Virus record (IMG/VR): IMGVR_UViG_3300032298_001311
Coordinates: 1 to 64,000 of that record
Direction: 5' to 3' (one strand)
DNA from: a virus
DNA length: 64,000 nucleotides
The notes under the pieces are model-generated. The model worked only from the letters and a program-made list of their open reading frames with translations, was not told the DNA's origin and made no database searches. This document shows, one piece after another, positions 40,634 through 59,747 of this stretch. Every line of letters begins with the position of its first letter. Position 1 is the stretch's first letter. A program made the position numbers and the translations under genes.

Positions 40634-40636
40634 AAT

Positions 40637-40937: not shown

Positions 40938-40954
40938 GTTCGCCTCTATGTTTG

Positions 40955-41658: not shown

Positions 41659-41660
41659 TA

Positions 41661-41840: not shown

Positions 41841-41906
41841 CTGTCTCTCCTTGTGTGTGTAATAGTATAATATACTATCTCTGTTGACTAAAGCCAAAAG
41901 TATTTA

Positions 41907-42080: not shown

Positions 42081-42105
42081 ATAATACTCCTTACAAAGAT
42101 AGTAT

Positions 42106-42273: not shown

Positions 42274-42275
42274 AG

Positions 42276-42416: not shown

Positions 42417-42427
42417 TTATATCTCCA

Positions 42428-42628
42428 TTATTTGCAAGGACGAAAAGCAGTAGAATAAGGACCAGTCTTATATTCACAAACTTTTTGTCTCGGTCTTGTA
42501 CTCTTATAATAGACACCATTGGTGTCTGCGTCAACACCTAATTTGTCTGCGACCTCCACAATAGTTAAACCTGCATTTACAGCATTACATCCTGTTAAGA
42601 ATAAAGATAAAAGAATAACATATCTCAT
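42428..42628 (-). CDS. Small lipoprotein
   Basis: Lipobox LTGC. Confidence 0.65.
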   Translation of the reverse strand: MRYVILLSLFLTGCNAVNAGLTIVEVADKLGVDADTNGVYYKSTRPRQKVCEYKTGPYSTAFRPCK

Positions 42629-42957
42629 GATCGTGTTCCTCTATATTTTTCTAGGGTAGAATGTAATATATCAATAGAACTATCGTTCATTTTTGTTTTA
42701 TGAGTCTTTGACATTAAACAATACTTGCCTGATCCGTATTGGATGATTATTGTTTCCTGATCATTAAGAGGAGTAAACAGTACTTCTAAAGTTTGTCCAT
42801 CCTTCGTTAATGATTGAAACAAAGTTTGAAATTTATTATCCTCAATATATTTCATAACTTCGTCTTTGTTGTAACATTGAGGGCCAACGCTTGGTTTAGC
42901 GTTGACCATATCGTAGGTTAATAATCCTACTAATAATCCTAAAAGGATTAATCTCAT
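42625..42957 (-). CDS. Secreted hypothetical protein
   Basis: Signal peptide, two Cys. Confidence 0.6.
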   Translation of the reverse strand: MRLILLGLLVGLLTYDMVNAKPSVGPQCYNKDEVMKYIEDNKFQTLFQSLTKDGQTLEVLFTPLNDQETIIIQYGSGKYCLMSKTHKTKMNDSSIDILHSTLEKYRGTRS

Positions 42958-42958
42958 A

Positions 42959-43150
42959 TTACTTCTTTACTGGAGCAGGAACAACAGCAGTACCGGCCTT
43001 GTTCTGAATCTCTAGCGGAGGCTTCCATCCTTGGAAGGAAGTTGCCTTCTTTGGAGCAACTGGAGTAGTAACTGTGTGTCCTGGAACGTGAGCTGCTATT
43101 GCTGCGGTACTAAAAAAAACAGCAAATAGAATAGTTGTGATCTTACGCAT
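42959..43150 (-). CDS. Small secreted Pro/Ala-rich protein
   Basis: Signal peptide ending AIA-A. Confidence 0.6.
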   Translation of the reverse strand: MRKITTILFAVFFSTAAIAAHVPGHTVTTPVAPKKATSFQGWKPPLEIQNKAGTAVVPAPVKK

Positions 43151-43171
43151 TTTGTTTCTCCATTTAATAAA

Positions 43172-44377: not shown

Positions 44378-44381
44378 GGAG

Positions 44382-44389
44382 TATTTATA
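44382..44389 (-). promoter_or_regulatory. T4-type late promoter abutting the tRNA-Ser CCA end
   Basis: TATAAATA. Confidence 0.65.
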
Positions 44390-44479
44390 TGGCGGAAGAG
44401 GTGAGATTCGAACTCACGGTAGGCTTGCACCTACGGCGGTTTTCAAGACCGCTGCCTTAAACCACTCGGCCACCCTTCC
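44390..44479 (-). tRNA. tRNA-Ser(TGA)
   Basis: Long variable arm, loop CTTGAAA, CCA. Confidence 0.95.
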
Positions 44480-44480
44480 G

Positions 44481-44909
44481 TTAAGTGTATTCATAGTTTA
44501 CACTATCTTCGTTTACTCTCAATATTTTAGCACCATTGTCGGTATGAAATCTACTAGCAGTAAATGTTTGAGGACTAAGAGTTATAAAACGATTAATTTC
44601 TGGTTTCTGTTCTTTTATATAGTCTTTTGCTTTAAAGAGCAGCCTTCTTCCTGATCCTGGCTTATAACTCCAAATGGTATAAAAAATTGCCATAGTCGGA
44701 TTATCAGAAGATATTAAATCTTCTATACTAGAAGGTATATGATCTTGATAGCTAACACAAACTACAGCAGCAGGATCGTTATTGTCTAGAAGGACTATTA
44801 TTTCTTTATTACCAATAATTCGTTCAAGAGCATATATGTCTTTACGTACAGGATCATCTTTTATTAAGTTTAATAATGGATCTCTTATATCATTAATTAT
44901 ATGTAGCAT
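44481..44909 (-). CDS. Hypothetical phage protein, GNAT-like
   Basis: FYTIWSYKPGSGRRL, TLSP, RFHTDNGA resemble acetyl-CoA-binding motifs. Confidence 0.55.
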   Translation of the reverse strand: MLHIINDIRDPLLNLIKDDPVRKDIYALERIIGNKEIIVLLDNNDPAAVVCVSYQDHIPSSIEDLISSDNPTMAIFYTIWSYKPGSGRRLLFKAKDYIKEQKPEINRFITLSPQTFTASRFHTDNGAKILRVNEDSVNYEYT

Positions 44910-45191
44910 TTACCAACCGTAATATCCGTACCCGTAAGCTGGCCCATAATATCCACCGTAAGGATAATAATAAACTGGAGGAGCATAATAATATTGTGGT
45001 GCATAATAATATTGTTGTGAAGCTATAGCACCTCCGATTATTGCGCCTGCAATTGCAGCACCAGCCATTGCACCACCGTATCCATATCCTCCGTAATACC
45101 CGCCGTACCCATAACGATACCAAGCATTAGCTGGTGCAATAGATGCTACAGTTATTCCGATTATAGTTATAAAAGCAAGAAGTTTTTTCAT
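44910..45191 (-). CDS. Secreted Gly/Tyr-rich protein of a type common in Rhizobiales
   Basis: Signal peptide, GAAIAGAIIGGAIA zipper, YYAP repeats. Confidence 0.65.
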   Translation of the reverse strand: MKKLLAFITIIGITVASIAPANAWYRYGYGGYYGGYGYGGAMAGAAIAGAIIGGAIASQQYYYAPQYYYAPPVYYYPYGGYYGPAYGYGYYGW

Positions 45192-45221
45192 TGTGTTCTC
45201 CTTCTTGCTTATTTAACAGTA

Positions 45222-45719
45222 TTATTCTTCCTTTGGAATTAAACTTTCTAACGGGGTTGGTGTAAAGTTTAACATCTCTACACAACAGTTTATATAACTC
45301 GACTCCGGTACTGAATTTTTATGGACATGTCCGTGTAAGTTATACTTTGTCTTATACAATGACGAAGTATGAACAGGAACATGCGTCAGTAGACAGTTAT
45401 ATTCCGGAAACATTCTCCACATCATAATTTTCTGGAAATTCTTATGTAAGTTTTCACACTTGCCATTATCATGATTTCCAAGGATCAAACGCTTGCGTCC
45501 TTTTAGGCGATTAAGTACTTCGTGACCTTTCCCAAAATAAACATCACCAAGATGATATACGATATCTCCATCGGAGACAACTCGATTCCAGTTTTCAACC
45601 ATTGTTTCATTCATATGCTCCACTGATTCAAACAGACGGAGGAATTCTCCGTCTGTGGTTTTGAATTTAAGGATATTCGTATGACCAAAGTGCGTATCCG
45701 AAATTACAAAGATGGTCAT
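45222..45719 (-). CDS. Calcineurin-like metallophosphoesterase
   Basis: SDTHFGH, LGD, GNHD, HGHVH. Confidence 0.88.
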   Translation of the reverse strand: MTIFVISDTHFGHTNILKFKTTDGEFLRLFESVEHMNETMVENWNRVVSDGDIVYHLGDVYFGKGHEVLNRLKGRKRLILGNHDNGKCENLHKNFQKIMMWRMFPEYNCLLTHVPVHTSSLYKTKYNLHGHVHKNSVPESSYINCCVEMLNFTPTPLESLIPKEE

Positions 45720-47536
45720 TACGACTCCCTAATTGGTTCCTTTCCATCTAGCAGATCGATTATTTCTTGTCCGCTCAATGTCTCATATAGTATAAGGCCT
45801 TGTGCAAGTTTGTCAAGTTGATCACGCTTCTCTATTAGGATTTGTTTTGCCGTTTCATATCCTTCTTGAATAAAACGACGGACTTCGTTATCGATTACCT
45901 TTTGGGTTTCTTGTGATATATGTTGTTCACGACCCATTGAATAACCGAGGAACTGTTCCTGCTGTGGCTCACTATAAGCAACTGTTCCAAGTTTATCACT
46001 AAAGCCTAATTGGGTAACCATAGCACGAGCAATTCGAGTAGCCTGTTGGATATCACCAGCAGCACCTGAACTTACCTTATCGTGTCCAAAAATTAATTCT
46101 TCAGCAACACGACCTCCCATTGCCATTGCCAACATTGCAATCAACTGTTCGTAGGTTTGACTAATCTCGTCACGTTCCGGAAGTGATTGCACCATACCTA
46201 AAGCACGACCTCTCGGTATGATTGTAGCTTTATGGATCGGTGTAGATCCTGGCATATTAAGACTTACAAGAGCATGTCCTCCTTCGTGATAAGCAGTCAT
46301 CTTTTTCTCATCATCGGTCATTAATAATGTGCGACGCTCTGCTCCCATAAGAATTTTATCACGGGCATCTTCAAATTCCTGTTTAGTAACAATTCTCTTA
46401 CTGCGACGAGCAGCAAGTAGAGCCGCCTCGTTAACAAGATTCATTAAGTCAGCACCACTAAATCCGGGTGTGCCACGAGCAACTACTTTAAGATCAACAT
46501 CTGGAGCAAGTGGAACTTTACGTGCGTGAACTTTAAGTATTTTTTCACGTCCTGTAATATCTGGATTACCTACAGTAATCTGACGATCAAATCTTCCTGG
46601 ACGAAGTAATGCAGGATCGAGAACATCAACTCTGTTAGTTGCTGCTATGATAATAATACCTTCGTTAGGTTCAAAGCCGTCCATTTCAACAAGTAAAGCA
46701 TTAAGTGTTTGTTCACGCTCATCGTTACCACCGCCTAATCCGGCACCACGATGTCTACCAACAGCATCAACTTCGTCAACAAACACAATACATGGAGCAT
46801 TTTTCTTTGCTTGTTCAAACATGTCACGAACACGACTTGCACCAACACCAACAAACATCTCAACAAAGTCTGAACCAGAAATGCTAAAAAACGGGACTCC
46901 TGCTTCACCTGCTACTGCTTTAGCAAGTAGAGTTTTACCAGTACCTGGTGGTCCAACTAATAGAACACCTCTTGGAATTTTACCACCAACAAGTTCAAAC
47001 TTGTTAGGATTCTTAAGAAAATCTACAACCTCTTGTAGGTCTTCCTTTGCTTCGTCAACACCTGCAACATCTTCAAATGTCACTGTGCCTTGCGATTCCA
47101 TAAGTTTGGCTTTTGATTTACCAAATCCCATAGCACCGCCCATGCCACCTCCTCCTCGCATACCCCTTGCTAACCAATACCATACAAGTATGAATACAAT
47201 TAAAGGTAGCAAATTTGCAGCTAATAGAGATGTCCAAGTTTCACCACCTACTGGTTTAACTGTAATTTGTACTTTTTTATCCTGTAGTTTTGTAATAAGT
47301 GTTGGGTCATTTGGGACATATGTTTGAAAAGTTCTGTTATCACTAAAATGACCCTGAACATCACTTCCACTAATCAAAACATCGTGGACACGACCTTCAC
47401 TGATTTGAACAAGAAAATCGCTAAAATTGATTTCTCTTGTACTAGGCTTACTCTCTTGATTTTGCCACATAGCAAACAGAATACCTGCCACTACAGAAAA
47501 AACAATCCAAGGTATATACTTCTTAAGGTTTTTCAT
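45719..47536 (-). CDS. ftsH: ATP-dependent zinc metalloprotease FtsH
   Basis: Two TM segments, [27 protein letters not shown]. Confidence 0.96.
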
Positions 47537-47586
47537 GATATATTCCTAATAGTTATATTTTTACTTATCTGCATATTTTATATAAT

Positions 47587-48309
47587 TTATCTTGTAATAA
47601 GACAGTGGGCGATTATTCTCTCGTCCGATCTTAAGACAGTTTCATATATATTATTTTTTTTAATAGTTAATCCATATATCTTATCTTCTGGAGTTATATT
47701 GCTAAAAAAGAATATTTTAATTTTTTTAATAGATGATTGTATTTTGTTGAAGGTTAAATGTTCACTTAGGTATACCAAGTTAATATAGTTGGCAAAATAT
47801 AATATTCTAACTCCATTAAAATATGCCTCTGGGCTAAACAACAAATCTTTATAGTCTTCTTTATTTTGTATATCTATATATTTTTTCTTTATTTCTTTAT
47901 GTTCTGAAGAAAATGTAATACTTGTATTTTCAAAAACAGTTGAATTCTGTAATGGAGTATCTCTAATTAAAATATTAGAGTTAAGGTCCTTTTTTACAAA
48001 TATTGTATCAACAATGGCATTTGCTGTGTTTCCTGTACAACAAATAGCATGTTTAGATCTATAAATTTGATTATTAAATTTATAAATTTTGCTTATAATT
48101 TCAGCATTATCGAATTCTTTAAAAGAGTCTTGTCCTTCACCGAAGTCTATTTCGAGAGCAAATACACTTGCATATAGTCTTTGATTTTGTTCATTTATAG
48201 TGGAAATCTTCTTTAAGAAAGCCCAATGATTCTCAGCTAATGTTTTAGATAACCATACAGGATCTAATCCATTATAATTTAAATGAGGCATTCCTATTTC
48301 AAAATTCAT
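47587..48309 (-). CDS. Pnap_2097/LnmK-like double hotdog-fold protein
   Basis: EIGMPHL...W...ENHW and NGVRILYFANY resemble my recollection of the family motifs (GMPQL, NGAGLLYFA). Confidence 0.65.
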   Translation of the reverse strand: MNFEIGMPHLNYNGLDPVWLSKTLAENHWAFLKKISTINEQNQRLYASVFALEIDFGEGQDSFKEFDNAEIISKIYKFNNQIYRSKHAICCTGNTANAIVDTIFVKKDLNSNILIRDTPLQNSTVFENTSITFSSEHKEIKKKYIDIQNKEDYKDLLFSPEAYFNGVRILYFANYINLVYLSEHLTFNKIQSSIKKIKIFFFSNITPEDKIYGLTIKKNNIYETVLRSDERIIAHCLITR

Positions 48310-48322
48310 ACTTAAATCCCTT

Positions 48323-48397
48323 TGGTGCTAATGGTAGGAATTGAACCTACTTTAAAGACCTTATGAGAGTCCCTCGATGCCATACCGACCCACTAGC
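48323..48397 (-). tRNA. tRNA with CAT anticodon (elongator Met or lysidine Ile2), atypical
   Basis: G1-C72 acceptor stem, loop CTCATAA, CCA; G at position 8. Confidence 0.7.
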
Positions 48398-48398
48398 A

Positions 48399-48542
48399 TT
48401 ACGTAACCTTTTCTATCTGATAGATATCAATAAATCCTTTTTGAGTATTTGCGTATTCAGTTGCTTTAATAAGATCATCAAACCAAACTTTGTATTCGTT
48501 ACCTTGATATTTTCCGTAAACTATATAACCTTCTCTCGGTTC
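48399..48542 (-). CDS. Small hypothetical protein
   Basis: MEPREGYIVYGKY...; longer track ORF overlaps tRNA-Asp, so start set at 48542. Confidence 0.5.
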   Translation of the reverse strand, partial: EPREGYIVYGKYQGNEYKVWFDDLIKATEYANTQKGFIDIYQIEKVT

Positions 48543-48563
48543 CATAACACACCTTATAATAAT

Positions 48564-48640
48564 TGGCGACCTGGATGGGGCTCGAACCCACAACTTCCGC
48601 CGTGACAGGGCGGTGCTCTAACCAATTGAACTACCAGGCC
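48564..48640 (-). tRNA. tRNA-Asp(GTC)
   Basis: Cloverleaf, loop CTGTCAC, CCA. Confidence 0.95.
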
Positions 48641-48645
48641 ATAAG

Positions 48646-48721
48646 TGGCTCTCCGACCAGGACTCGAACCTGGGACCCAGCGATTAACAGTCGCTTGCTC
48701 TACCGGCTGAGCTATCGGGAA
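48646..48721 (-). tRNA. tRNA-Asn(GTT)
   Basis: Loop CTGTTAA, CCA; one acceptor-stem mismatch. Confidence 0.9.
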
Positions 48722-48749
48722 ATAACTTACAAACTTATATTAACATCTA

Positions 48750-49178
48750 TTAGTGTGTAGTCAACCTATTGATTACCATACTTACCCATTTGTCAGTATC
48801 ATAATCTGTTACTCTAATATCGTAGTTTATAGGAGGTTCAAATAATGTATTAGTATCATTAAATCTTCCTTGTTTTATAGTGTCTATCCATATAGTGATA
48901 TCGGCATTAAAAATTTTACGATATTCTTCTAAAGGACACACATAATCACAAACAGCTATAATTTTATTTTCTTTACAAATATTTGCCTTTTCAGACATTC
49001 TTTCTGTTTGTCGTAGTCTTCCCTCCCGAGAAAAATCCCAATCATTATACATTTTACGAATATCGTCACCATTATACCAAGAAAATGACTTACCCTCATT
49101 ACTTAATCTATCTATTAATTTATGAGCAAATGTAGTTTTACCTGCACCAGGTAATCCCATTATTAGTATTTTATACAT
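48750..49178 (-). CDS. Adenylylsulfate kinase-like P-loop kinase
   Basis: GLPGAGKTT, NGDDIR, FSREGRLRQ, FEPP. Confidence 0.75.
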   Translation of the reverse strand: MYKILIMGLPGAGKTTFAHKLIDRLSNEGKSFSWYNGDDIRKMYNDWDFSREGRLRQTERMSEKANICKENKIIAVCDYVCPLEEYRKIFNADITIWIDTIKQGRFNDTNTLFEPPINYDIRVTDYDTDKWVSMVINRLTTH

Positions 49179-49190
49179 AGATTATTTATT

Positions 49191-49267
49191 TGGAGCACCT
49201 GGTAAGATTTGAACTCACAACCTACGGTTTCGAAGACCGCCGCTCCATCCAGTTGAGCTATAGATGC
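49191..49267 (-). tRNA. tRNA-Arg(TCG)
   Basis: Loop CTTCGAA, CCA; first 10 nt overlap the end of the upstream CDS. Confidence 0.92.
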
Positions 49268-49821
49268 GCTTTTAGTTTTTCAAAAACTATTTGATTACCG
49301 GTATCATTGTAATGATTTATTAATCCTTGATGTTTTTCAAATACTTGTTTAAAAGAGATCATGGCAGGAAATTTATATAAACCTTTCCAATTAAAACTTG
49401 TTATATGCAATACAGGATAATCTTTAGTTATTTCGTCAATTTGTTTACAAATAAGGTTATGTGTAAATTCTGCATAATCTAAATCAAAATATTTTTCATA
49501 ATAATCTACTATAGACAGTTCTTTATGATATTCAACATCTGAATATATAAAATCGCTATTCTTATGTAATATATCATTATAATGTAAAGGATGTTTTCTA
49601 ACATAAAGTCTATACGGACTTGTATGTGAAATAATAACAATATCAAAATTATTTAAGTTTATTGATTTTAATTGTTGATGAATTTTATATTCGCCGCACC
49701 CTGCTTGAGCAAGATTTGTTACTTTATATTCTTTTGATAACATATTAGGCCAACCGCAGCCTTGATATTTTATAGTCCAATCGGCAGCAAAACTATCGCC
49801 ACATATTAATATTTTTTTCAT
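49258..49821 (-). CDS. SGNH-like hydrolase/acyltransferase
   Basis: ICGDSFA, NLAQAG, INH motifs. Confidence 0.65.
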   Translation of the reverse strand: MKKILICGDSFAADWTIKYQGCGWPNMLSKEYKVTNLAQAGCGEYKIHQQLKSINLNNFDIVIISHTSPYRLYVRKHPLHYNDILHKNSDFIYSDVEYHKELSIVDYYEKYFDLDYAEFTHNLICKQIDEITKDYPVLHITSFNWKGLYKFPAMISFKQVFEKHQGLINHYNDTGNQIVFEKLKAHL

Positions 49822-49831
49822 GGTGTATTTA

Positions 49832-49860
49832 AAAGGGAGGAAACGGACGGTCCTCCCTTT
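49832..49860 (-). terminator. Intrinsic terminator after the peptidase gene
   Basis: AAAGGGAGGA / TCCTCCCTTT inverted repeat. Confidence 0.7.
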
Positions 49861-49866
49861 ATGATT

Positions 49867-50394
49867 TTATCGTCTTGCTTCAATGTGCATGTGATTATAA
49901 TGTCCTCTTACTTTCCAAAGGACTGCATAACCGGCTGCTCTAGCACGAGCAGCAACACCATCAAACCAATGTCTTGTTCTTGGGTTAGAAGCTTCAACAA
50001 CGCCGCGACCTACATTTATATCGATAGCACGACCTGCATAATGTCCATGACCATGATGGACATGATGAACACCGCCAAACGCAGGATGTTCCGAAACTCT
50101 AATACCTTGATGTTGTAACATACGGCCGTACGCTACTATACTCGGTGATGCTTTACCAGCATAATGTTGGCTGTATGTATTGTAATAACTGTGTCTTAAA
50201 GGAACACGATTACGAAGTTGTGGTGATACACCCCATCTGTCGTTGCTGGTTCCAAGAATGTGGTCAATCGGACTTTCCCACGATTCTTCATAGTTTGAAT
50301 ACTGAGTATTCTTATAGTAACGACGAGCTTCCGCTGTACTGCTACTCGCAGCCAATACGATAGCCATAGCTACCAATAATATAATCCTCTTCAT
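49867..50394 (-). CDS. Secreted LAS/M15-type zinc peptidase (peptidoglycan hydrolase-like)
   Basis: Signal peptide; H-x6-D (HYAGRAID) and HxH (HMH) ligands. Confidence 0.7.
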   Translation of the reverse strand: MKRIILLVAMAIVLAASSSTAEARRYYKNTQYSNYEESWESPIDHILGTSNDRWGVSPQLRNRVPLRHSYYNTYSQHYAGKASPSIVAYGRMLQHQGIRVSEHPAFGGVHHVHHGHGHYAGRAIDINVGRGVVEASNPRTRHWFDGVAARARAAGYAVLWKVRGHYNHMHIEARR

Positions 50395-50541
50395 TTATTT
50401 CCTTTCAATAAGCGCAACTTTGTATTATTCTTATTATTCTTAAGTTGCGTCTGCCAATCACGGGTCCGTGTATGATCAGCTATCCCCACCAAAAAGGGCA
50501 GGTTGTATATTTATCGGAAAAATATGAAGAAAAAACTACAG

Positions 50542-50668
50542 TTTACTTTGGTAGCATAAAATGCCCGTAAGCATCGAATAGCCACTGTGGTTGTGGTAAA
50601 AGACTCCAACCAACAATAAGGCCAGCACCAAAAGCTAAAATTGTAGTAACAAAAACTAACTTTTTCAT
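50542..50668 (-). CDS. Small membrane peptide (41 aa)
   Basis: MKKLVFVTTILAFGAGLIVGWSLLPQPQWLFDAYGHFYATK after ATAAATA. Confidence 0.45.
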
Positions 50669-50679
50669 ACAGTATTTAT

Positions 50680-50754
50680 TGGAGGAGAGGATGGGAATCG
50701 AACCCACTTAATACGGTTTTGCAGACCGCTCCATAACCATTCTGGTACCTCTCC
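50680..50754 (-). tRNA. tRNA-Cys(GCA)
   Basis: Loop CTGCAAA, CCA. Confidence 0.93.
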
Positions 50755-50755
50755 A

Positions 50756-51397
50756 TTATCTCTTAAAAAGATATTTTTTTTCTTCAAAAAACTTATAATT
50801 TTTTTTATTTAAATGGTATATGTGACTATTTACTTCATCCCAATTCTTTATATAAGATTCATAATTACCCGGAGTTTTAATTAAAGAACTAGATTTTTGG
50901 TATTCTTCTATATCTAATGGAGGTAAATCTAGTATAGAACATAAAGATAAAGGATCATTTTTAAATTCATCATAATTTATTATTGTAGAAATAGAAAACA
51001 AATCTTTAGGAATAGTATTATACCATTCTAACATTAGATGATATTGTCCTACAAAATCTTTAATATTTAAATGAAAAGGTGTTATTTCTAATTTTGGAGT
51101 TTCTGTGCTATAATGATAGATATTAGTATTTTTTGCTATAAAATGGCTTAAACAAATTTCTATAGGATTTCTTATACTGATGATATATTTCCCTTTTTTT
51201 AACGGGAAAAATTTTTTTTGGTGATCATGTATTATTACTTGATTTTTAGATATAATATCTTTTGATATTTCATTAGAAGTTATTAATTTTAAATCGACAT
51301 TCTGTTCTCTATAAACTCTACGTATAATGTTTACTATTAACATACTTCCCGTTCGACCGGGAGTTGTAATAAACCAATTATCGTATTCTAAAAACAT
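50756..51397 (-). CDS. Sulfotransferase-like protein
   Basis: 5'-PSB-like TPGRTGSMLI and 3'-PB-like IRNP...S. Confidence 0.65.
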   Translation of the reverse strand: MFLEYDNWFITTPGRTGSMLIVNIIRRVYREQNVDLKLITSNEISKDIISKNQVIIHDHQKKFFPLKKGKYIISIRNPIEICLSHFIAKNTNIYHYSTETPKLEITPFHLNIKDFVGQYHLMLEWYNTIPKDLFSISTIINYDEFKNDPLSLCSILDLPPLDIEEYQKSSSLIKTPGNYESYIKNWDEVNSHIYHLNKKNYKFFEEKKYLFKR

Positions 51398-51415
51398 ACA
51401 TTATTTAATAGAATT

Positions 51416-51501
51416 TGGCGGCCCGTTAGCCCCTAGGGTGTTGGAAACCCAGGATTGACCCCCGAGTGGGACTTCTTCCTATTTGAGCACCGCGACGGGC
51501 C
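51416..51501 (-). ncRNA. Unclassified 86-nt tRNA-like RNA with acceptor stem and CCA
   Basis: GGCCCGT/ACGGGCC 7-bp stem plus G-CCA; internal GGGT-TTCCAAC-ACCC hairpin; no cloverleaf. Confidence 0.55.
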
Positions 51502-51514
51502 AAGCGCGGCTTTC

Positions 51515-52204
51515 TTACTTACGATCTCCGAAGAGCATAAGCAGATTTATAAACATGTTGATAAAGTTCATATAAAGTTGTAATGCTCCGTAAATACCAA
51601 GCATTTCTCTTTCACCTTCATAAGAACGATCGTACATGTCCTTTAACATCTGAACATCATAAGCAGTAAGACCTGCGAAAAGTAATACTGCGATAAGACT
51701 TGTAGCAGTAGCAATAACTGTGCTCTGAACAAATAAATTAATAAGACCAGTTATAATCAGCCCCATCAATCCCATAAACAAGAATGATCCAAACTGTGTT
51801 AGATCACGCTTCGTTGTATATCCATACAGGCTAACTGCTCCAAACATAGCACTTGTTCCAAAGAAAAGTGTAAAGATACTACCCATCTTAAACAGAGCAA
51901 AGATAAATGCTAAACTTATACCTGTTGCTGCTGAATAAACATAGAACCAAGTTCTTGCCTGCGCTGGAGTCATTGATCTAATAGCCCAAGACAAGTACAT
52001 AACAATTCCTAATGGTGCTAACATCACTAACCATTTTTGTGGACCACCGAAGAACATTCCTAATAGTTCTGGACTTGTGCCAACAATAAATGATAGCACA
52101 CTACTAATGGCGAGACCTATCGCCATATTATTAAAGATACTGAGCATATACTGTCTCAGCCCTTCGTTATAAGAAATACCTACAGTATTATAACCGGATC
52201 TCAT
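51515..52204 (-). CDS. Bax inhibitor-1/YccA family membrane protein
   Basis: About seven TM helices, GYTTKRDLT, ALQLYMNFINMF. Confidence 0.9.
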   Translation of the reverse strand: MRSGYNTVGISYNEGLRQYMLSIFNNMAIGLAISSVLSFIVGTSPELLGMFFGGPQKWLVMLAPLGIVMYLSWAIRSMTPAQARTWFYVYSAATGISLAFIFALFKMGSIFTLFFGTSAMFGAVSLYGYTTKRDLTQFGSFLFMGLMGLIITGLINLFVQSTVIATATSLIAVLLFAGLTAYDVQMLKDMYDRSYEGEREMLGIYGALQLYMNFINMFINLLMLFGDRK

Positions 52205-52271
52205 TTTAATCTCCTCTACTATGTATTATATTGTATTTTTACAACAGATTACAACCGATATGCTACTCTAT

Positions 52272-52826
52272 TTAAGAATTATTCATAAAACAAAACCAAC
52301 CAGTTATAATATATTTTATTTCAGTGTTAGAAACAACACCTCTATGATAATGTGTCCACCCTGCAGGCCAAATTATTGTTAATCCTTTTTCAGGAGGAGT
52401 TGTTAAATTTTGATGAATAAACTCTGTTCCGCCACCATCTTTAATATCATTCAAATATGTCATATAAACTAAATGCCTGTTTATATAATTATCAAGTCCA
52501 TTGTTTTCGCAATGTTCTATTGAATAAAATTTTCCAGGATCATATCTTTGTATTCTAGGGCGGGTGAAACCCCATTTAACAATATCTTTCGAACAAAAGG
52601 GATATAAATTTTTATAATTTGTTGTTACTTGTATTAATTCTTTACAATATCTTTCACATAATTTAGAATCAAAATATTCTAAATCTATATCTCTATATTC
52701 TTTAATTCCGCTTTGGAATACTAAAGGATTACTCTCGCCTTTTGTTACTATTGAATCGCATAAGGTATGATCGATATACCAACCTGCTATGAAATTATTT
52801 AGATTGTTTATACTACTTGATTTCAT
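52272..52826 (-). CDS. 2OG-Fe(II) oxygenase (prolyl 4-hydroxylase-like)
   Basis: EHCE, YMTYLND..GGGTEF, WPAGWTHYHRG; start MKSSS at 52826. Confidence 0.82.
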   Translation of the reverse strand: MKSSSINNLNNFIAGWYIDHTLCDSIVTKGESNPLVFQSGIKEYRDIDLEYFDSKLCERYCKELIQVTTNYKNLYPFCSKDIVKWGFTRPRIQRYDPGKFYSIEHCENNGLDNYINRHLVYMTYLNDIKDGGGTEFIHQNLTTPPEKGLTIIWPAGWTHYHRGVVSNTEIKYIITGWFCFMNNS

Positions 52827-52846
52827 AAATTTAATTATCAGTTTGA

Positions 52847-52922
52847 TGGTAGACCGTGAGGGATTTGAACCCCCGACAAAGTGATTAAGAGTCACCTGCT
52901 CTACCAACTGAGCTAACGGTCC
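52847..52922 (-). tRNA. tRNA-Lys(CTT)
   Basis: Loop CTCTTAA, CCA. Confidence 0.95.
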
Positions 52923-52927
52923 ATAAC

Positions 52928-53005
52928 TGGTTGGCGTAGCTGGATTCGAACCAGCGACCTCAGACTTATCAGGTCTGCGCTCTGAACCAACTGAGCTATA
53001 CGCCA
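52928..53005 (-). tRNA. tRNA-Ile(GAT)
   Basis: Loop CTGATAA, CCA. Confidence 0.95.
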
Positions 53006-53006
53006 A

Positions 53007-53080
53007 TGGTACCGACATCAGGTATCGATCCTGATCTAACTGATCCACAATCAATCGTGCTACCTTTACACTATGTCGGC
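53007..53080 (-). tRNA. tRNA-His(GTG), no encoded G-1, A73
   Basis: Loop TTGTGGA; acceptor GCCGACA/TGTCGGT, A, CCA; T-loop ATCGATA. Confidence 0.88.
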
Positions 53081-53088
53081 TTAAAAAA

Positions 53089-53164
53089 TGGTGCTGCTTG
53101 AGAGATTTGAACTCCCGACCTACTGATTACTAATCAGTTGCTCTACCAACTGAGCTAAAGCAGC
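53089..53164 (-). tRNA. tRNA-Thr(AGT)
   Basis: Stem ACTGA/TCAGT, loop TTAGTAA; otherwise typical Thr body; CCA. Confidence 0.9.
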
Positions 53165-53165
53165 G

Positions 53166-53858
53166 TTATATCCAATTTAATTCTTTTAATTTCTCAAATA
53201 ATACATTTGATGTATATGTTTTAAAAGAATTTGGTGTAGGATGAATTTGATCCTCTAAAAAATCTAAATTGTTTTCTCTACACCATGACATTATACTTTT
53301 GTCTAAAAAATCAATTTGCTTTTCGGCAAGAAAAGCAGTCATGCTTTCCCAATGTTCAGATTTAATTGCCCAATCCATTCCTACAACTATTAATAATCTT
53401 GGACATATTTTTTTAATAATTACAAACATAAAAAGCAAATGTTGTAATGTATCAACCTCTGTATGTGATTCTATAGTATTTTCAAATCTTCTATACAAAG
53501 GACTAACAGATAGTAAATTAATTCTCGGTTGACCGTCAATCTTATTTTTATCTTTTATATGATAATGAGACATAGAGAATTTTTTTTGAATAAGTTTTTC
53601 TGTTCTTTCTAATTTGTCGAGATGTTCGTTCTCTAACGTAAGAACAGGGCCCGATGAAGCAGAAATCTGCCAAATAACAATATCATCATGTTTTAAATCA
53701 TTATCTAACATCCAATCTTGAAACAATTGGCTTTGAAAAAGATTTTGTGATGCAGGTTTAGCAAGATTGATTAATTCAAAATTAATCATATCTGACAAAA
53801 TACATGGCCACGGAGTTTTTCCGAGAGACATACTATCACCAAGTGTTATTAAACGCAT
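53166..53858 (-). CDS. SGNH-like hydrolase/acyltransferase
   Basis: LGDSMS, NLAKPASQN, DQIHP; TATAAATA at 53863-53870. Confidence 0.7.
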   Translation of the reverse strand: MRLITLGDSMSLGKTPWPCILSDMINFELINLAKPASQNLFQSQLFQDWMLDNDLKHDDIVIWQISASSGPVLTLENEHLDKLERTEKLIQKKFSMSHYHIKDKNKIDGQPRINLLSVSPLYRRFENTIESHTEVDTLQHLLFMFVIIKKICPRLLIVVGMDWAIKSEHWESMTAFLAEKQIDFLDKSIMSWCRENNLDFLEDQIHPTPNSFKTYTSNVLFEKLKELNWI

Positions 53859-53878
53859 GAGATATTTATAAACGAAAA

Positions 53879-53953
53879 TGGCGCTCCCTACGAGATTCGA
53901 ACTCGTGTTTCAGCCGTGAAAGGGCCGCGTCCTAACCACTAGACGAAGGGAGC
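53879..53953 (-). tRNA. tRNA-Glu(TTC)
   Basis: Loop CTTTCAC, CCA. Confidence 0.95.
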
Positions 53954-53961
53954 GTACATTT

Positions 53962-53990
53962 AATATACACTAACAGATTCACAATGTCAA
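53962..53990 (-). promoter_or_regulatory. Sigma70-like promoter upstream of tRNA-Glu
   Basis: TTGACA-17 nt-TATATT. Confidence 0.65.
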
Positions 53991-53995
53991 ACAAC

Positions 53996-54023
53996 AAAAA
54001 ACCCCGGACTATTAATCCGGGGT
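53996..54023 (-). terminator. Intrinsic terminator of the leader region
   Basis: ACCCCGGA-TTAATAG-TCCGGGGT followed by a T-tract. Confidence 0.85.
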
Positions 54024-54050
54024 CTTTAAAGCATATATGTGATTCTCAAA

Positions 54051-54125
54051 TCACCACGCCAGACCCCGACTGGTATCTTCATACCAGCACATAATCTTAT
54101 TAATGTTACAATGGCGTTGGGTCAT
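54051..54125 (-). CDS. Putative 24-aa leader peptide
   Basis: MTQRHCNINKIMCWYEDTSRGLAW between promoter and terminator. Confidence 0.4.
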   Translation of the reverse strand: MTQRHCNINKIMCWYEDTSRGLAW

Positions 54126-54157
54126 TATTGAACTCACTAATCCTTTATTGTCTTTTA

Positions 54158-54186
54158 TTTATACACGCAGATTAAAACTATGTCAA
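54158..54186 (-). promoter_or_regulatory. Sigma70-like promoter of the leader
   Basis: TTGACA-17 nt-TATAAA. Confidence 0.65.
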
Positions 54187-54204
54187 CCTTTAATTTGTTT
54201 ACAT

Positions 54205-54723
54205 TTATACTTTTTTGATAAGCCAGGATGGTATAATATGATGATTATCGGTATATAGTCTATTAGTTCCTAGAAAGTCATGAACAGCACATTTAACAGT
54301 ATCCCAATTATAATCGTGTCCGCCAATCTTTCCTCCGAGTTTCAGTTTAGGATACCATGCAAATATATCCTCTTTTACAGATTCGTAATCGTGCGATGCA
54401 TCTAAGAAGACAAAATCTAAACTATTATCTCTATAAAGTTTTGCTGCTTCAATACTACACAATTTAATAGGATTAATATAATTCTTAACAGGACCTATAT
54501 TATTAATAAATTCGTTATAAATTTCATCAGGAAATATATCTACACAATCAAATTTAATATTCTTTTTGCTATTAATAATTTCAACAGCCATAAATGCTGC
54601 ACTACGTCCTTTAAGTGTTCCAACTTCAACAATATGAGAATTGTTGTCTATTTCATTTATTATATTTTTATAGATATCCTGAAATGTAAAAAATCCTTCA
54701 ATTGATTCATAAAAATGTTCCAT
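54205..54723 (-). CDS. Class I SAM-dependent methyltransferase (Methyltransf_24-like)
   Basis: VEVGTLKGRS, VFLDASHDY, GGHDY. Confidence 0.85.
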   Translation of the reverse strand: MEHFYESIEGFFTFQDIYKNIINEIDNNSHIVEVGTLKGRSAAFMAVEIINSKKNIKFDCVDIFPDEIYNEFINNIGPVKNYINPIKLCSIEAAKLYRDNSLDFVFLDASHDYESVKEDIFAWYPKLKLGGKIGGHDYNWDTVKCAVHDFLGTNRLYTDNHHIIPSWLIKKV

Positions 54724-54778
54724 ATTATTATGTATTATATTTTCTTTATCTTAAATTAATTTTGATATTATTTCGTGG

Positions 54779-54808
54779 TTAGAGGCTAATCCAAAGACTA
54801 GCCTCTAA
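54779..54808. terminator. Intrinsic terminator after the rlpA-like gene
   Basis: TTAGAGGCTA / TAGCCTCTAA 10-bp inverted repeat. Confidence 0.75.
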
Positions 54809-54813
54809 TTTTT

Positions 54814-55320
54814 TTAGTTTACGCGAGCGACATGTACAGTTGATGTACTTCCCATACCGATTGCTCTAGCAGCACCGTATGAAAGATCTAACTGACGTCC
54901 GCGAACAAATGGACCACGGTCGTTAATTGTTACGTGAACACATCCACGATGACAAACTTGAAGAACAGTTCCAAACGGAAGTGTCTTATGAGCGGCTGTC
55001 ATAGCATGTGGATTAAAAACTGCTCCACTAGCAGTATGCTTTGCTAGTTTCTCACCGTGTCCGTAAAAGGAAGCAACCATGCGCTGTCCTCCGGAAACAA
55101 TGCTACTAAAGAATCCACCGTTATCTGCCTGTTCTGTAGCAGGCTGTGCTTCTGCGTGTCGTCCGTGACGACGAGCAACTTTAACAGTGGATTGAGTGTG
55201 CGGCTGCTGTAATACATCGTCAAATAATGAACTAATCGGATCTTCTCCGGCTATTGACGGTGTAGCACTAATAACAACTGCTGTAATAGCAGCCATCACA
55301 ACTTTATTAAATTTAATCAT
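54814..55320 (-). CDS. rlpA: RlpA-family lytic transglycosylase (DPBB fold), secreted
   Basis: ASFYG, TASG, MTAAHKTLPFGT, INDRGPF, LDLSYGAA. Confidence 0.9.
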   Translation of the reverse strand: MIKFNKVVMAAITAVVISATPSIAGEDPISSLFDDVLQQPHTQSTVKVARRHGRHAEAQPATEQADNGGFFSSIVSGGQRMVASFYGHGEKLAKHTASGAVFNPHAMTAAHKTLPFGTVLQVCHRGCVHVTINDRGPFVRGRQLDLSYGAARAIGMGSTSTVHVARVN

Positions 55321-55646
55321 ATTCTATCCTTCCTTTTCTGGTTCGTTCAGCACAATGCCAGACGAACATATTAAGAGTTGAACGAGATATGAGACCGTTC
55401 AACTGTACTTTCCCAAACTAATGGGAAACTCTAAATTTCTGGAAATATAAGTCTTTAGATTATGCTATGTAAAAAACTAACATAAAAGCAAGAGCAAGCA
55501 TAGAAGTTACAAAAAATATAGCATCCTGCTTTTCAGTTTGTGCTATAGCGATTGCTTTTGCTTTGGACTTACGCATAATATTATCCTTTCGATAAAAAGC
55601 TCGTTTTGTATTTAGCAATTTTTATCGCACATAAAACTGCATATAA

Positions 55647-55736
55647 TGGCGGAAGGAGTGGGATTCGAACCCACGGTAGCATCTCTGCTACGCCCATTTA
55701 GCAAACGGGTGCTTTCGGCCTCTCAGCCATCCTTCC
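55647..55736 (-). tRNA. tRNA-Ser(GCT)
   Basis: Long variable arm, loop TTGCTAA, CCA. Confidence 0.95.
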
Positions 55737-55745
55737 ATACTGTAA

Positions 55746-55774
55746 ATTATATATGCTTCACTGGACTATGTCAA
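55746..55774 (-). promoter_or_regulatory. Sigma70-like promoter upstream of tRNA-Ser(GCT)
   Basis: TTGACA-17 nt-TATAAT. Confidence 0.7.
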
Positions 55775-55805
55775 GAAGAAAGCCGCCCGTATTACACGAG
55801 CGGCT
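55773..55805 (-). terminator. Intrinsic terminator after pmoC
   Basis: AGCCGCTCGT/ACGGGCGGCT stem followed by TTCTTCTT. Confidence 0.75.
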
Positions 55806-55831
55806 CTTGGGAGGATTTAATCTCTACTGAA

Positions 55832-56599
55832 TTAATCAGCGAGGAGGGCGACGCCGTCCTTACCAACTAGAGCATGTACTCTTCCGAGGATCTGTAGAAC
55901 AACACCAAATACACCTAGTGCCATCCAACCAAAGAACACAAAGCCCCAATGTAGAGGTGCTACGAAGAGCTCTTCCATAAACCAGAATGTATGACCCCAC
56001 TCATTGAGACCAACATTTGGAATAATCATGAACGGACCAATAGCAACGATCAAGAATGCTAGTGAATAGCCCTGAGCGAAGTATGGGATACGTGTTCTTG
56101 CGTAGAAGAACGCACCAACAGCAATAACGCTGTAGATTGGGTAGCTCATGTAGAACTCAATGATGTGACTTGGAGTGAAGTCAGTATCACGAATAACTGT
56201 CATGTGCCAAGTTCCGTCCTGCTCTGTAAAGAACGAAGCACCCCAGTAAATAGCAACACCGTAAACTACGAGCCACTGTACAAGGGTTACAAGGCGACGC
56301 ATTTCTTCACGAGGAGTTACGTTAGCTAGATCGCGATCGCGAGTCTTCCAAAGATAACCAGCAAGTCCTAGTCCAGAAACTAGTTCTAGTGGAATCTCTG
56401 TCCAAAGGATTGACATCCAATATGTCTGGAACTCTGGAGCAAATGAATCTAGTCCAGCTCTCCATCCGAAGACCTGCTCATAGATACGTACAATTAGATA
56501 GAAAACATTTAAACATGCTAGTCCGATCCACATACCACGTAGATCAACAACCTGTGCGTCTGTGTCCGCAAGTGCGGTAGTCTTAGTAAGTGTTGCCAT
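55832..56599 (-). CDS. pmoC: Particulate methane monooxygenase subunit C
   Basis: DSFAPEFQTYW, EQDGTWH...DTDFTPSH, NEWGHTFWFMEELFVAPLHWGFV; N-terminal part (VDLRGMWIGL...PLELVSGLGLAGYLWKTRDR) of Methylocystis/Methylosinus type. Confidence 0.97.
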   Translation of the reverse strand: MATLTKTTALADTDAQVVDLRGMWIGLACLNVFYLIVRIYEQVFGWRAGLDSFAPEFQTYWMSILWTEIPLELVSGLGLAGYLWKTRDRDLANVTPREEMRRLVTLVQWLVVYGVAIYWGASFFTEQDGTWHMTVIRDTDFTPSHIIEFYMSYPIYSVIAVGAFFYARTRIPYFAQGYSLAFLIVAIGPFMIIPNVGLNEWGHTFWFMEELFVAPLHWGFVFFGWMALGVFGVVLQILGRVHALVGKDGVALLAD

Positions 56600-56754
56600 T
56601 TCTTATCTCCTATAAAGTTAGGCATTTTTATTGAGCATCACTGAAATCTTACGGTTCACCACCTCCCGATGTAGTGATGCTCCGTTTACACACGTTATAT
56701 GAGTTGTTTTACTTGCACACCTCCCCGGTTAAAGTATCACTTTACTCTGACAAG

Positions 56755-56762
56755 TATTTATA
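56755..56762 (-). promoter_or_regulatory. T4-type late promoter upstream of pmoC
   Basis: Exact TATAAATA about 155 nt before the ATG. Confidence 0.65.
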
Positions 56763-56959
56763 ATCTTGTCTTATAACTGTATATATTTTTAGTATAAATG
56801 AAAGTATTTGTCAAGGAAGAAATTGGTTTTTTAATTGTCCAAAGAGCCAGAAAGGCAAGCTCACAACCGTGGTAATAATAAAAATAACAGACATAACAGC
56901 TAGATAGCCGGCGAAAATAGCAAATCTTGGAATTTGTAAAAGAGATCCGGTTAATGTTC

Positions 56960-57529
56960 TCATGTGTTTATCTCTATGTCTACAGCAACAATAAATCTGT
57001 TCTGTTTGCTCTGTACGATTCCCGGTCGATGCCAATGCTGACTTGGATATATATGCCAAGTTTTTCTATGTGGCCTTACGAAAAACCGCTCAGGATTATT
57101 TACCCCATTAGGAGCAAACTCTGTACCGGCATGATCTAGATCAAGAACATCATCTGGAATATGAACATAATAAACGCCGCTTATTTTCCTTTTACTAGTA
57201 TCTGGAAGATGATTATGCCATAAATTATCGCGATCCTCTGCTCCGTCTAAATTTGTCATAAAAGACCATGCATTCATGTTAGATACGCGAACTTCACTGC
57301 CAAGATAAAGGAACACTGAAGTAAGAAAGCTCATCCTGTATTTGAGCCAAATAGGTTCAGGACGAGCAAAAATATTTTCTTTAGTTTGAAATTTTGGGCT
57401 GTTTATGAAATAGTTTCCGGACTCGATAATTCCTTTTACTATTTCACAAACATTTTGATCATCTTGATCAGAAATTAAACTGCTATAATCAAAAGTTTTA
57501 CAAATAGCATTTTGATCTATAACAGTCAT
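56960..57529 (-). CDS. 2OG-Fe(II) oxygenase-like protein
   Basis: WHNH...SGVYYV...GTEF...YPSQHWH. Confidence 0.7.
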   Translation of the reverse strand: MTVIDQNAICKTFDYSSLISDQDDQNVCEIVKGIIESGNYFINSPKFQTKENIFARPEPIWLKYRMSFLTSVFLYLGSEVRVSNMNAWSFMTNLDGAEDRDNLWHNHLPDTSKRKISGVYYVHIPDDVLDLDHAGTEFAPNGVNNPERFFVRPHRKTWHIYPSQHWHRPGIVQSKQNRFIVAVDIEINT

Positions 57530-57539
57530 TTAAATCCTT

Positions 57540-57614
57540 TGGAGCGGGTGACTGGATTCGAACCAGCGACGAACAGCTTGGAAGGCTGACACTCTACCCC
57601 TGAGTTACACCCGC
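57540..57614 (-). tRNA. tRNA-Gly(TCC)
   Basis: Loop CTTCCAA, CCA. Confidence 0.95.
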
Positions 57615-57635: not shown

Positions 57636-59747
57636 TTACCAATTTCCTTCATTACAATAATGATATTTGAAAGAAAAATCAATAGTTTTATTGAAGATCT
57701 TTTCTTCATTCATTAAGAATGCAAATTCTTGTTCTGTTCTACCATTTTCTAAATCATATTTTGGTTTTGCAAGTTTTCTTGCTCTTATAGCAGTATTACT
57801 TTTAATTCTTGTGTAATCTTGTGCATAGAATGGTCCTCTACGATGATCTCTTCTATTGTCAAAAGGATTTTCGATTTGATTTAATGTTACATCAAAATCT
57901 GCAAACCATTTACCATTATCGTCGATTATAAATTTATAAATTGCATTAAGCATACCTGGATCATATTGATTACCAAACTCTTTTAGATCAATATCTGGAT
58001 TATATTTGATTTCAATTTCAAAGGCCCCTCTCGTTTTCCAAAGGATTCTTAATAGCGGCCATACTTCATTCATTAATGAATCAGCAAATGAATTTATATT
58101 TGGTTTAATGATATTATAATCAAAATTTTCAAATTCTATTTCATTAATAATACTAGGATTGTTAAATTTTATTTTATAATGAGATCTTGCTAATTCTGTT
58201 CTAGGGGGGTATGAAATTGGTTTTTCTGTACAGTCTTTCATTATATCTAAAAATATATGTGCTGTTTTTAAACGGACCATAACATGAGTTCCGCCCATAG
58301 AAAAATCTTTTGTAATCCAATGTCCTTGATAAAAGTGATCGGAAATATTGAATCTATTTAAATTTTGTCCAACTATGGCTTCGGAACTCAACCCAAATCC
58401 ACCCCCTATTCCAATATTATTCATATTAAGATTTCTTAATCTCCACAGTAATGTTAAAGTATCCGCAAAGTCTTGATATTTTTCTGTAGGAAATCCTACA
58501 ATCCAATTAGTTGCATTAAATATACCAACTTCTTTACCGTCTTTGAAATTTTGTTCTATTTCTGAAATTTTAACTTTTTTATCCATATCGTCTAAAACTT
58601 TTTGACTGCCAGATTCAACACCATAATTTAACATAATGCATCCGCCAGCTTTAAGATCTTTAAAATAATCTAAATCCATTCGTCCGTCACAACGGGCATA
58701 TCCAGTCCAATTTATGTTCAATCCTTTAGTCTGAACAGCTTTACAAAAAGCTCTCAATTCATTAATATTACCATTCACTAAACTATCTATAAACCAGATA
58801 ACATCAGTTCCTTTGTTATAATATAACCATTCGATTTCAGTAATTAAATCTACAGAACTTCGTTGTCTATATTTCCAAAAGTGTGTCTCTTCACAAAATG
58901 TACATTTTGCAATACATCCTCTACTGATTTCTGTATTAACACCGTTAGGAATACTGTAATCACTAAAATTAATACTTTCATAATCGGGCATGGGAAACCC
59001 ATTAAGATTTAATCTTTGATCTTCTGGCTGTGTTATATATTGTGTGGTATCATGCACGATACCATTTTCAATTTCATCTAATATTTGTAATAAAGCATAT
59101 TCACCCTCGCCGTTCACAACATAGTCATAATACGGATGTCGTTCAAACCAAGATTTTTGTACATTACTACCACCAACTAATATTTTAATGTTTGGAAGTT
59201 TTTTCTTTAATTCTCGACACATCCATTTTGTAGGTTCTTCATTTACATCATAAACTGTGAACCCTACTGCTTGAGGATTGAATTCTATAATTTTATCAAT
59301 TGCTTCTTGTAAAATATTATCTAGATAAGGATGAACATCTTCTAAATATCTTCCTTCTCTCCATTTCCAATGTACACTCGGGTCCCATAAACTTGTATTA
59401 TGATTGTACAAATACCCTGACTCTTTTTGAAACTGATTATAGGCCTTAACATTTAAATCTAATATATGAGTTTCATATCCTGCTGTTTTTGCAACACCAC
59501 TTAGTCTTGCTAAATTAAAAGGGGGGAATTGTGCAGCCCATTGAGGACATAAAACTAATGCTAATTTTGTATTTCTTTTTTTATAATTTATATAAACCGG
59601 AGTAACATTTTTTTGGTCAACTTTTTTAGCATAGGGAGCAATAGCAGCTAACATACTCATGTGTCGGTCATTAGCTGTATTTTCCGAAGGTTTTTCTTTT
59701 AATTCTACATTTCTTTTAGCTAAACTACTTAAATTGAAATCTACCAA
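57636..59747 (-). CDS. Cobalamin-binding radical SAM enzyme
   Basis: B12-binding domain (VGFTVY...VGG...GEGE), SRGCIAKCTFC, GVESGSQKVL..M.K. Confidence 0.88.
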   Translation of the reverse strand: MVDFNLSSLAKRNVELKEKPSENTANDRHMSMLAAIAPYAKKVDQKNVTPVYINYKKRNTKLALVLCPQWAAQFPPFNLARLSGVAKTAGYETHILDLNVKAYNQFQKESGYLYNHNTSLWDPSVHWKWREGRYLEDVHPYLDNILQEAIDKIIEFNPQAVGFTVYDVNEEPTKWMCRELKKKLPNIKILVGGSNVQKSWFERHPYYDYVVNGEGEYALLQILDEIENGIVHDTTQYITQPEDQRLNLNGFPMPDYESINFSDYSIPNGVNTEISRGCIAKCTFCEETHFWKYRQRSSVDLITEIEWLYYNKGTDVIWFIDSLVNGNINELRAFCKAVQTKGLNINWTGYARCDGRMDLDYFKDLKAGGCIMLNYGVESGSQKVLDDMDKKVKISEIEQNFKDGKEVGIFNATNWIVGFPTEKYQDFADTLTLLWRLRNLNMNNIGIGGGFGLSSEAIVGQNLNRFNISDHFYQGHWITKDFSMGGTHVMVRLKTAHIFLDIMKDCTEKPISYPPRTELARSHYKIKFNNPSIINEIEFENFDYNIIKPNINSFADSLMNEVWPLLRILWKTRGAFEIEIKYNPDIDLKEFGNQYDPGMLNAIYKFIIDDNGKWFADFDVTLNQIENPFDNRRDHRRGPFYAQDYTRIKSNTAIRARKLAKPKYDLENGRTEQEFAFLMNEEKIFNKTIDFSFKYHYCNEGNW

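Follow-up and report, generated by a model that had tools for sequence, protein, structure and literature searches.

Here, we found that a short leader upstream of a phage tRNA cluster belongs to a family of RNA elements in uncultured phages, and we consider it probable that these are ribosome-operated leader-peptide attenuators, which would sense general decoding capacity and gate phage tRNA arrays. The leader lies in a stretch of 64,000 nucleotides (the window; positions 1 to 64,000 of IMG/VR record IMGVR_UViG_3300032298_001311), which is part of a 128.8-kb record with an estimated completeness of 36%. In total, we found at least 37 distinct leaders, homologous or analogous, which fall into three sequence-unrelated clades, A, B and C. 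The parts of the element, the mutual exclusivity of its two structures, the conservation of its ORF, the covariation of its antiterminator and its position before tRNA arrays emerge from the sequences and their comparison.

RESULTS

Two mutually exclusive structures in the leader of the window

The original prediction, made from this one sequence, had described a sigma70 promoter, a 24-codon ORF with a terminal Trp codon, a hairpin with CUGGUAU and AUACCAG arms around a GAAG loop, a G-rich segment with a 9-bp complement downstream, a GUGAUU/AAUCAC hairpin, a terminator that reuses this complement as its 5' arm and a second promoter just beyond the terminator. All of these elements are present (Table 1). 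The complement of the G-rich segment (54069-54061 with 54025-54017) consists of eight Watson-Crick pairs and one U.G pair, and the second promoter, P2, begins 6 nt past the U tract of the terminator. The 5' arm of the terminator is at the same time the 3' strand of the antiterminator; as both structures use 54025-54018, they exclude each other, just as had been proposed. Hairpin 1, which lies inside the ORF, is a candidate RNA polymerase pause hairpin.

The promoter P1 was skipped by a consensus scan because the final base of its -10 hexamer is A. Read as TATAAA, the -10 element may work with sigma-70, and TATAAATA presumably also fits the T4-type late promoter consensus. Throughout the record, TATAAATA occurs 12 times on the minus strand and once on the plus strand. 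The copies at 53870-53863 and 44389-44382 (minus strand) stand 4 nt 5' of the ATG of the ORFs after tRNA-Glu and tRNA-Ser, so that these mRNAs would be nearly leaderless if the motif is a promoter.

Both the overall fold and the shared pairing are far stronger than expected by chance. The leader folds with -54.1 kcal/mol, compared to -33.7 +/- 4.0 kcal/mol for shuffled sequences (z = -5.1; 0 of 200 shuffles as stable), and the best duplex of upstream RNA with the core of the terminator arm reaches -16.6 kcal/mol, compared to -7.8 +/- 2.0 kcal/mol for shuffles, a strength matched by 0.05% of 2000 shuffles. Among 19 terminator-like hairpins in the 128.8-kb record, the leader terminator has the strongest upstream complement. 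When folding of the nascent RNA was followed stepwise, the antiterminator remained the minimum-energy fold as long as the terminator 3' arm was missing. A covariance-model search of 54190-53996 against Rfam (E <= 1) gave no family match, including riboswitch and T-box families, and the L202 homolog gave sub-threshold, terminator-like matches only. When the region was compared with 50,697 phage records by BLAST, the match was confined to the tRNA-Glu part.

Table 1. Features of the leader, its surroundings in the window and the elements found in related loci (locus names precede positions outside the window)
Feature	Position	Strand	Remarks
P1 -35 hexamer TTGACA	54181..54186	-	read from sequence; found at the same 17-nt spacing in nearly all leaders of clades A and B
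P1 -10 element TATAAATA, TATAAA(TA)	54156..54163	-	17-nt spacer to -35
Leader transcript, ~155 nt	53996..54152	-	nominal 5' end
Shine-Dalgarno-like purine-rich tract	54133..54145	-	AAGGA, then GUGAG 7 nt before ATG; weak
Leader ORF, 24 codons + TGA	54051..54125	-	ATG 54125, TGA 54053-54051; final codon Trp
Possible segment 1	54112..54117	-	candidate anti-antiterminator strand; can pair with 54061-54056
Hairpin 1	54070..54087	-	inside ORF; 7-bp stem, 54087-54081 with 54076-54070, GAAG loop
Antiterminator stem-loop	54018..54068	-	minimum-energy fold without terminator 3' arm
Antiterminator basal helix	54068-54061 with 54025-54018	-
Antiterminator middle helix	54060-54055 with 54035-54030	-
Hairpin 2	54054-54039	-	antiterminator apex, 54054-54049 with 54044-54039; contains stop codon
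Intrinsic terminator	53997..54027	-	14-bp stem, AAU loop, U6; -19.6 kcal/mol
P2, second promoter	53962..53990	-	TTGACA 53990-53985, 17-nt spacer, TATATT 53967-53962; 11/12 matches
tRNA-Glu(UUC)	53879..53953	-	first gene downstream of leader
230-aa ORF, then tRNA-Thr, His, Ile, Lys	down to 52847	-	after tRNA-Glu
tRNA genes of window, n = 18	39420-57614		15 amino acids covered
Bax1-I/YccA-like membrane protein	51515-52204	-
Class I methyltransferase	54205-54723	-
DPBB/RlpA-like protein	54814-55320	-
AmoC/PmoC homolog	55832-56599	-	full-length; Pfam PF04896, E = 5.5e-109
2OG-Fe(II) oxygenase-like protein	56960-57529	-
B12-binding radical SAM enzyme	57636-59747	-
RNA X copies	L202:7296-7388	+	about 50 further loci
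	L168:2434-2527
	L195:2817-2911
51-52-aa Lys/Glu-rich ORF	L168:2272-2430	+	between terminator and RNA X, some phages
	L096:12120-12275	+
	L173:2501-2659	+

Related leaders in three clades

Is this layout a common motif in phages? The original prediction had named homologous leaders before tRNA arrays, with covarying antiterminators, as the evidence to look for, and such leaders, homologous or analogous, do exist: at least 37 of them, in three clades, with covariation in an alignment of ten. One homolog, found among loci collected by means of pmoC, is 82% identical to the leader of the window (L096), and a pattern scan of metagenomes gave another with 94% identity (L164/L165). More distant leaders were recovered by a scan for the conserved 5' end and in loci retrieved via the small ORF described below. 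A scan for a conserved RNA downstream of these distant leaders yielded 55 loci, in about half of which model R2 places leaders; in others of the 55 a third, longer leader type, clade C, was recognised by inspection. Clade A denotes the type of the window, clades A and B together comprise the 27 leaders tested, and eight clade C leaders were examined. Other routes gave no further leaders. No homolog was found at 80 loci retrieved via the upstream methyltransferase, the downstream 230-aa protein used as bait gave no loci, an exact 26-mer scan gave no match, and model R1 found the known copies only, and no paralog, in 80 pmoC-phage loci and the phage's own genome.

In the close relatives, homology spans the leader from the -35 element to the U tract, while the upstream gene differs. 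L164 and the window share 94% identity in the leader and 74-88% in the flanking genes, which indicates that the leader is still under selection in the window. In L096, the terminator and the tRNA-Glu promoter are separated by an inserted 51-aa ORF, which has a strong Shine-Dalgarno site.

The design is kept throughout. The TATAAATA -10 element is present in 27/27 clade A and B leaders, with TTGACA 17 nt upstream in nearly all, and the clade C leaders examined have TATAAATA or a one-base variant upstream. Every leader has an ATG ORF of 23-35 codons, preceded by a short purine tract; in most relatives a GAG, AAGG or GGA tract lies 4-9 nt 5' of the ATG, and the Shine-Dalgarno site is weak. All 27 leaders of clades A and B retain an ATG ORF that has 20 or more codons and stops 50-66 nt from the leader 3' end, compared to 5.4% of shuffled leaders; the actual stops lie 54-63 nt from this end. 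The frame is maintained despite a 3-nt indel in L096 and a shift of the start codon by 9 nt in L169, and in all members examined the stop codon falls within the 5' strand of the antiterminator. A terminator with GC-rich stem and U tract follows in 27/27 clade A and B leaders and in 8/8 of clade C. Hairpin 1 retains more sequence within clade A than pairing alone demands, and in clade B a hairpin of other sequence takes its place. What had been claimed from a single sequence, an attenuator layout, thus recurs as a joint conservation of ORF, antiterminator and terminator in at least 37 leaders of three clades.

Conservation and covariation of the antiterminator

When the terminator 3' arm is omitted, all 27 leaders form a stem-loop of 45-55 nt with about 20 bp, whose 5' strand starts right after hairpin 1 and whose 3' strand is the terminator 5' arm. 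Clade C follows the same antiterminator plan with a different core sequence. In a model-guided alignment of ten leaders, 21 of the 28 pairs of hairpin 1 and antiterminator vary on both sides. In the same alignment, 80% of cells are paired, compared to 32-49% when the partners are slid by 1-3 columns, and none of 500 shuffles reaches the observed value; for hairpin 1, likewise in a model-guided alignment, 7 of 8 pairs vary on both sides across relatives. Because the ten-leader alignment leans toward the model, we added an alignment-free test with chimeric hairpins, whose 5' and 3' halves were taken from different subclades: cognate halves pair with -22.0 kcal/mol, non-cognate halves with -12.8 +/- 5.7 kcal/mol. 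The core of four G:C pairs is invariant, and the adjoining bases covary visibly between subclades; in the terminator, they pair with the U tract either way. RNAalifold on plain MAFFT alignments of the 27 leaders, truncated or at full length, recovered almost no helices, since these are out of register there.

Thus, two exclusive structures are both maintained and an ORF ends in one of them, which is the defining layout of a ribosome-operated attenuator. A possible further pairing, between segment 1 (54117-54112) and segment 2 (54061-54056), shows one compensatory change from C:G to A:U between the window and L096; in most members it is not better than in shuffles (p 0.02-0.4). As such an anti-antiterminator has no statistical support, the untranslated default may be read-through, unlike in the trp leader.

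tRNA arrays and a structured RNA behind the terminator

In the relatives, the leader heads long tRNA arrays with up to 19 co-oriented genes; as a rule no tRNA lies upstream of it, and mostly no promoter-like site separates it from the array. The arrays cover most amino acids, and tRNA-Trp is frequently within the first three genes. Right after the terminator, or after a 52-aa ORF, lies an RNA of about 85 nt, RNA X, with the tRNAs next. A plain MAFFT alignment of 28 copies of RNA X has 95% of its cells paired and 124 compensatory cells, two covarying pairs support an H-type pseudoknot, and Rfam holds no match. The 51-52-aa ORF has a strong Shine-Dalgarno site and lacks its own promoter; it is represented by 15 protein clusters in a large database, lacks a Pfam domain, and its sole PHROG match is weak (E 0.0068) and to a family of unknown function. 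In L202, the segment between RNA X and the first canonical tRNA (L202:7555-7677, plus strand, 123 nt) matches the Rfam tRNA model with 56.9 bits, and ARAGORN calls no tRNA there; the segment may encode a tRNA enlarged by a long insertion, or else an RNA that resembles tRNA.

RNA X has been lost in the clade of the window, and the window and L164 have additionally lost the small ORF; neither was found in the 128.8-kb record. Here, the terminator abuts P2 and tRNA-Glu, and P2 is conserved in L164 and L096. Several clade C loci have a sigma-70-like site likewise placed after the terminator, so that a second promoter is a recurrent feature and not an accident of the window. As tRNA-Glu has a consensus-grade promoter of its own 6 nt past the terminator, read-through could only supplement its expression, and no more than modestly. 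The read-through into tRNAs foreseen in the original prediction is supported by the leaders that head tRNA arrays in the relatives, with the qualification that RNA X or the 52-aa ORF comes first there and that in the window P2 precedes tRNA-Glu.

The 18 tRNA genes of the window do not include tRNA-Trp, Tyr, Ala, Phe or Pro, and the leader ORF contains two Trp codons as well as Tyr and Ala, for which no cognate tRNA is among the 18. Between 50756 and 59747 (minus strand), the tRNA genes are interleaved with protein-coding genes of several types (Table 1). The full-length AmoC/PmoC homolog inside this tRNA region assigns the record to the large freshwater phages with a pmoC or amoC gene, a type described by Chen et al. 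2020 (PMC7674155); that study reports tRNAs of these phages and does not mention promoters or terminators.

Amino-acid diversity of the leader peptides

The leader ORFs contain no runs of one regulatory codon; instead, almost all amino-acid kinds occur once or twice. The peptide of the window has 17 kinds in 24 residues (P = 0.02 given the phage's own composition), and several relatives reach 19 or all 20 kinds. All 37 of 37 peptides lie above the random mean in the number of kinds (mean z +2.2), and rare residues are nearly universal, with Trp in 36/37, His in 35/37 and Cys in 33/37. Such diversity suggests a multivalent sampler of decoding capacity rather than a sensor of one amino acid, and since the many kinds include the rare Trp, Cys, His and Met, the signal is probably general decoding capacity. 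By eye, the window's 18 tRNAs, for 15 amino acids, cover its peptide about as well as a random peptide.

We also considered Trp-specific sensing, given the near-universal Trp codon and the often early tRNA-Trp. The distance from the Trp codon to the antiterminator is 8 nt in clade B and 18-20 nt in clades A and C, so that a single-codon sensing geometry is not common to the clades, and we set this candidate aside. The rare Cys, His and Met speak against it as well, since they are just as universal, in keeping with a pan-amino-acid design.

DISCUSSION

From this architecture we infer that the ORF is translated and that the ribosome controls the switch, as well as the direction of regulation and its signal. 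P1 would initiate a leader of ~155 nt, and a ribosome would load onto the 24-codon ORF. Upon fast decoding, the ribosome would arrive at the stop codon (54053-54051) inside the 5' strand of the antiterminator and mask roughly 54068-54039; 54025-54018 would then be free, the terminator would form and transcription would end at about 53997. If the ribosome lags or stalls within the first ~15 codons, or does not load, the antiterminator would form first and sequester the terminator 5' arm, leading to read-through into RNA X and the tRNA array in the relatives, and across P2 into tRNA-Glu and beyond in the window. The signal would be a shortage of almost any charged tRNA, and the outcome a negative feedback on tRNA supply.

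Could the terminated transcript of ~155 nt instead be the product, a stand-alone small RNA that acts in trans on phage or host mRNAs, with the ORF and the alternative fold secondary or serving a dual role? The element is a self-contained module from promoter to terminator, its homology ends at these borders, its terminator is strong, with an A/U-rich stretch ahead of the U tract, and trans activity of an attenuator RNA is documented for Sinorhizobium rnTrpL, which derives from a trp attenuator (PMC7968998). Furthermore, purifying selection acts on the leader in the window and L164 although the gated genes are no longer present and tRNA-Glu is preceded by a separate promoter. We first favoured a small RNA from the close relatives, and downgraded it because the distant homologs show the ORF, the switch and the position at the array head. 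A small RNA would leave the conservation of both mutually exclusive structures unaccounted for, as well as an ORF in 27/27 leaders with a fixed stop position and the consistent placement just upstream of X and tRNA arrays, mostly without a promoter between; nor is a single-stranded seed common to the clades discernible by eye. We thus regard it as unlikely.

A switch driven by a factor or ligand, in which a protein, tRNA or metabolite binds hairpin 1 or the antiterminator and the ORF is not the sensor, could account for the sequence of hairpin 1 being kept beyond its pairing needs in clade A. It would also be in line with the conserved structured RNA X after the leader and with an anti-antiterminator that is not established. 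The three clades, however, have no aptamer-like core in common, only the ORF and the switch geometry; Rfam gave no riboswitch or T-box match, and both the retention of the ORF and the amino-acid diversity would remain unexplained, which makes such a switch quite unlikely. We consider it very improbable that the element is a micro-protein gene, with the 24-aa peptide as functional product, followed by an ordinary terminator. The ATG, the frame and the stop are conserved, and a short motif around the Trp codon is common within clade A, but peptide sequences are unrelated between clades, so that the peptide itself is hardly the product. When the window is compared with L096, the changes fall evenly on the codon positions and nearly all are non-synonymous, whereas the 3' half of the leader is invariant in nucleotides even past the stop codon; a micro-protein would not explain the covariation of the antiterminator either.

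A ribosome-operated attenuator would have well-known counterparts in the enterobacterial leaders (trpL, hisL, leuL, pheL and the multivalent thrL and ilvL). Like these, the phage elements combine a short leader ORF with an intrinsic terminator and with an antiterminator, one strand of which also belongs to the terminator, and the position of the ribosome is the presumed selector. In clades A and C, the distance of the sensing codon from the antiterminator resembles that in the trp leader. In contrast to these systems, the phage element precedes tRNA genes and a structured RNA, not biosynthetic enzymes, and it has no run of a single codon, no established 1:2 hairpin and no similarity in sequence or Rfam family. 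Leader-peptide attenuation of a component of the decoding machinery, rather than of an amino-acid pathway, is known from pheST of E. coli with its pheM leader; there, one amino acid is sensed via Phe codons, the synthetase and not tRNAs is controlled, and the system is cellular, not viral. T-box riboswitches also report tRNA charging through a terminator/antiterminator decision, but do so by direct binding of uncharged tRNA and without an ORF, and the phage leader has no T-box match; the presumed hosts of these phages are Proteobacteria.

Discussion of phage tRNA genes usually centres on codon usage or on escape from tRNA-targeting defences. Our literature search found no attenuator before tRNA genes. 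The nearest published case that we found is the trn operon of Anabaena PCC 7120, a long tRNA array that is induced under translational stress (PMC8421152) and which is controlled by the ribbon-helix-helix transcriptional repressor TrcR (PMC10272220). It is likewise a supernumerary tRNA array with the same presumed logic of induction under impaired translation; it differs in using a repressor instead of a leader-peptide attenuator, and in being bacterial and plasmid-borne.

In summary, at least 37 related leaders head tRNA arrays, and the phages that carry them therefore probably match their tRNA output to the quality of ribosomal decoding. The leader family is compact, at about 155 nt, with clear mutational predictions. 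Besides, RNA X is a separate, well-supported structured RNA without known family, a constant partner of the leader in the relatives that has been lost in the clade of the window. If the leaders are indeed attenuators, phages would gauge translation elongation directly and set their tRNA supply accordingly, and a textbook bacterial mechanism would be extended to RNA-gene targets and to a many-codon signal. More tentatively, and somewhat short of calling it probable, we propose a pan-amino-acid 'decoding gauge' of large phages, in which a mini-ORF samples nearly all tRNA species and feeds back on the tRNA array and RNA X. If so, tRNA genes would for the first time be seen to be controlled by attenuation, and these phages would have a built-in sensor of host tRNA depletion, as caused, for instance, by codon mismatch, host shut-off or anticodon nucleases.
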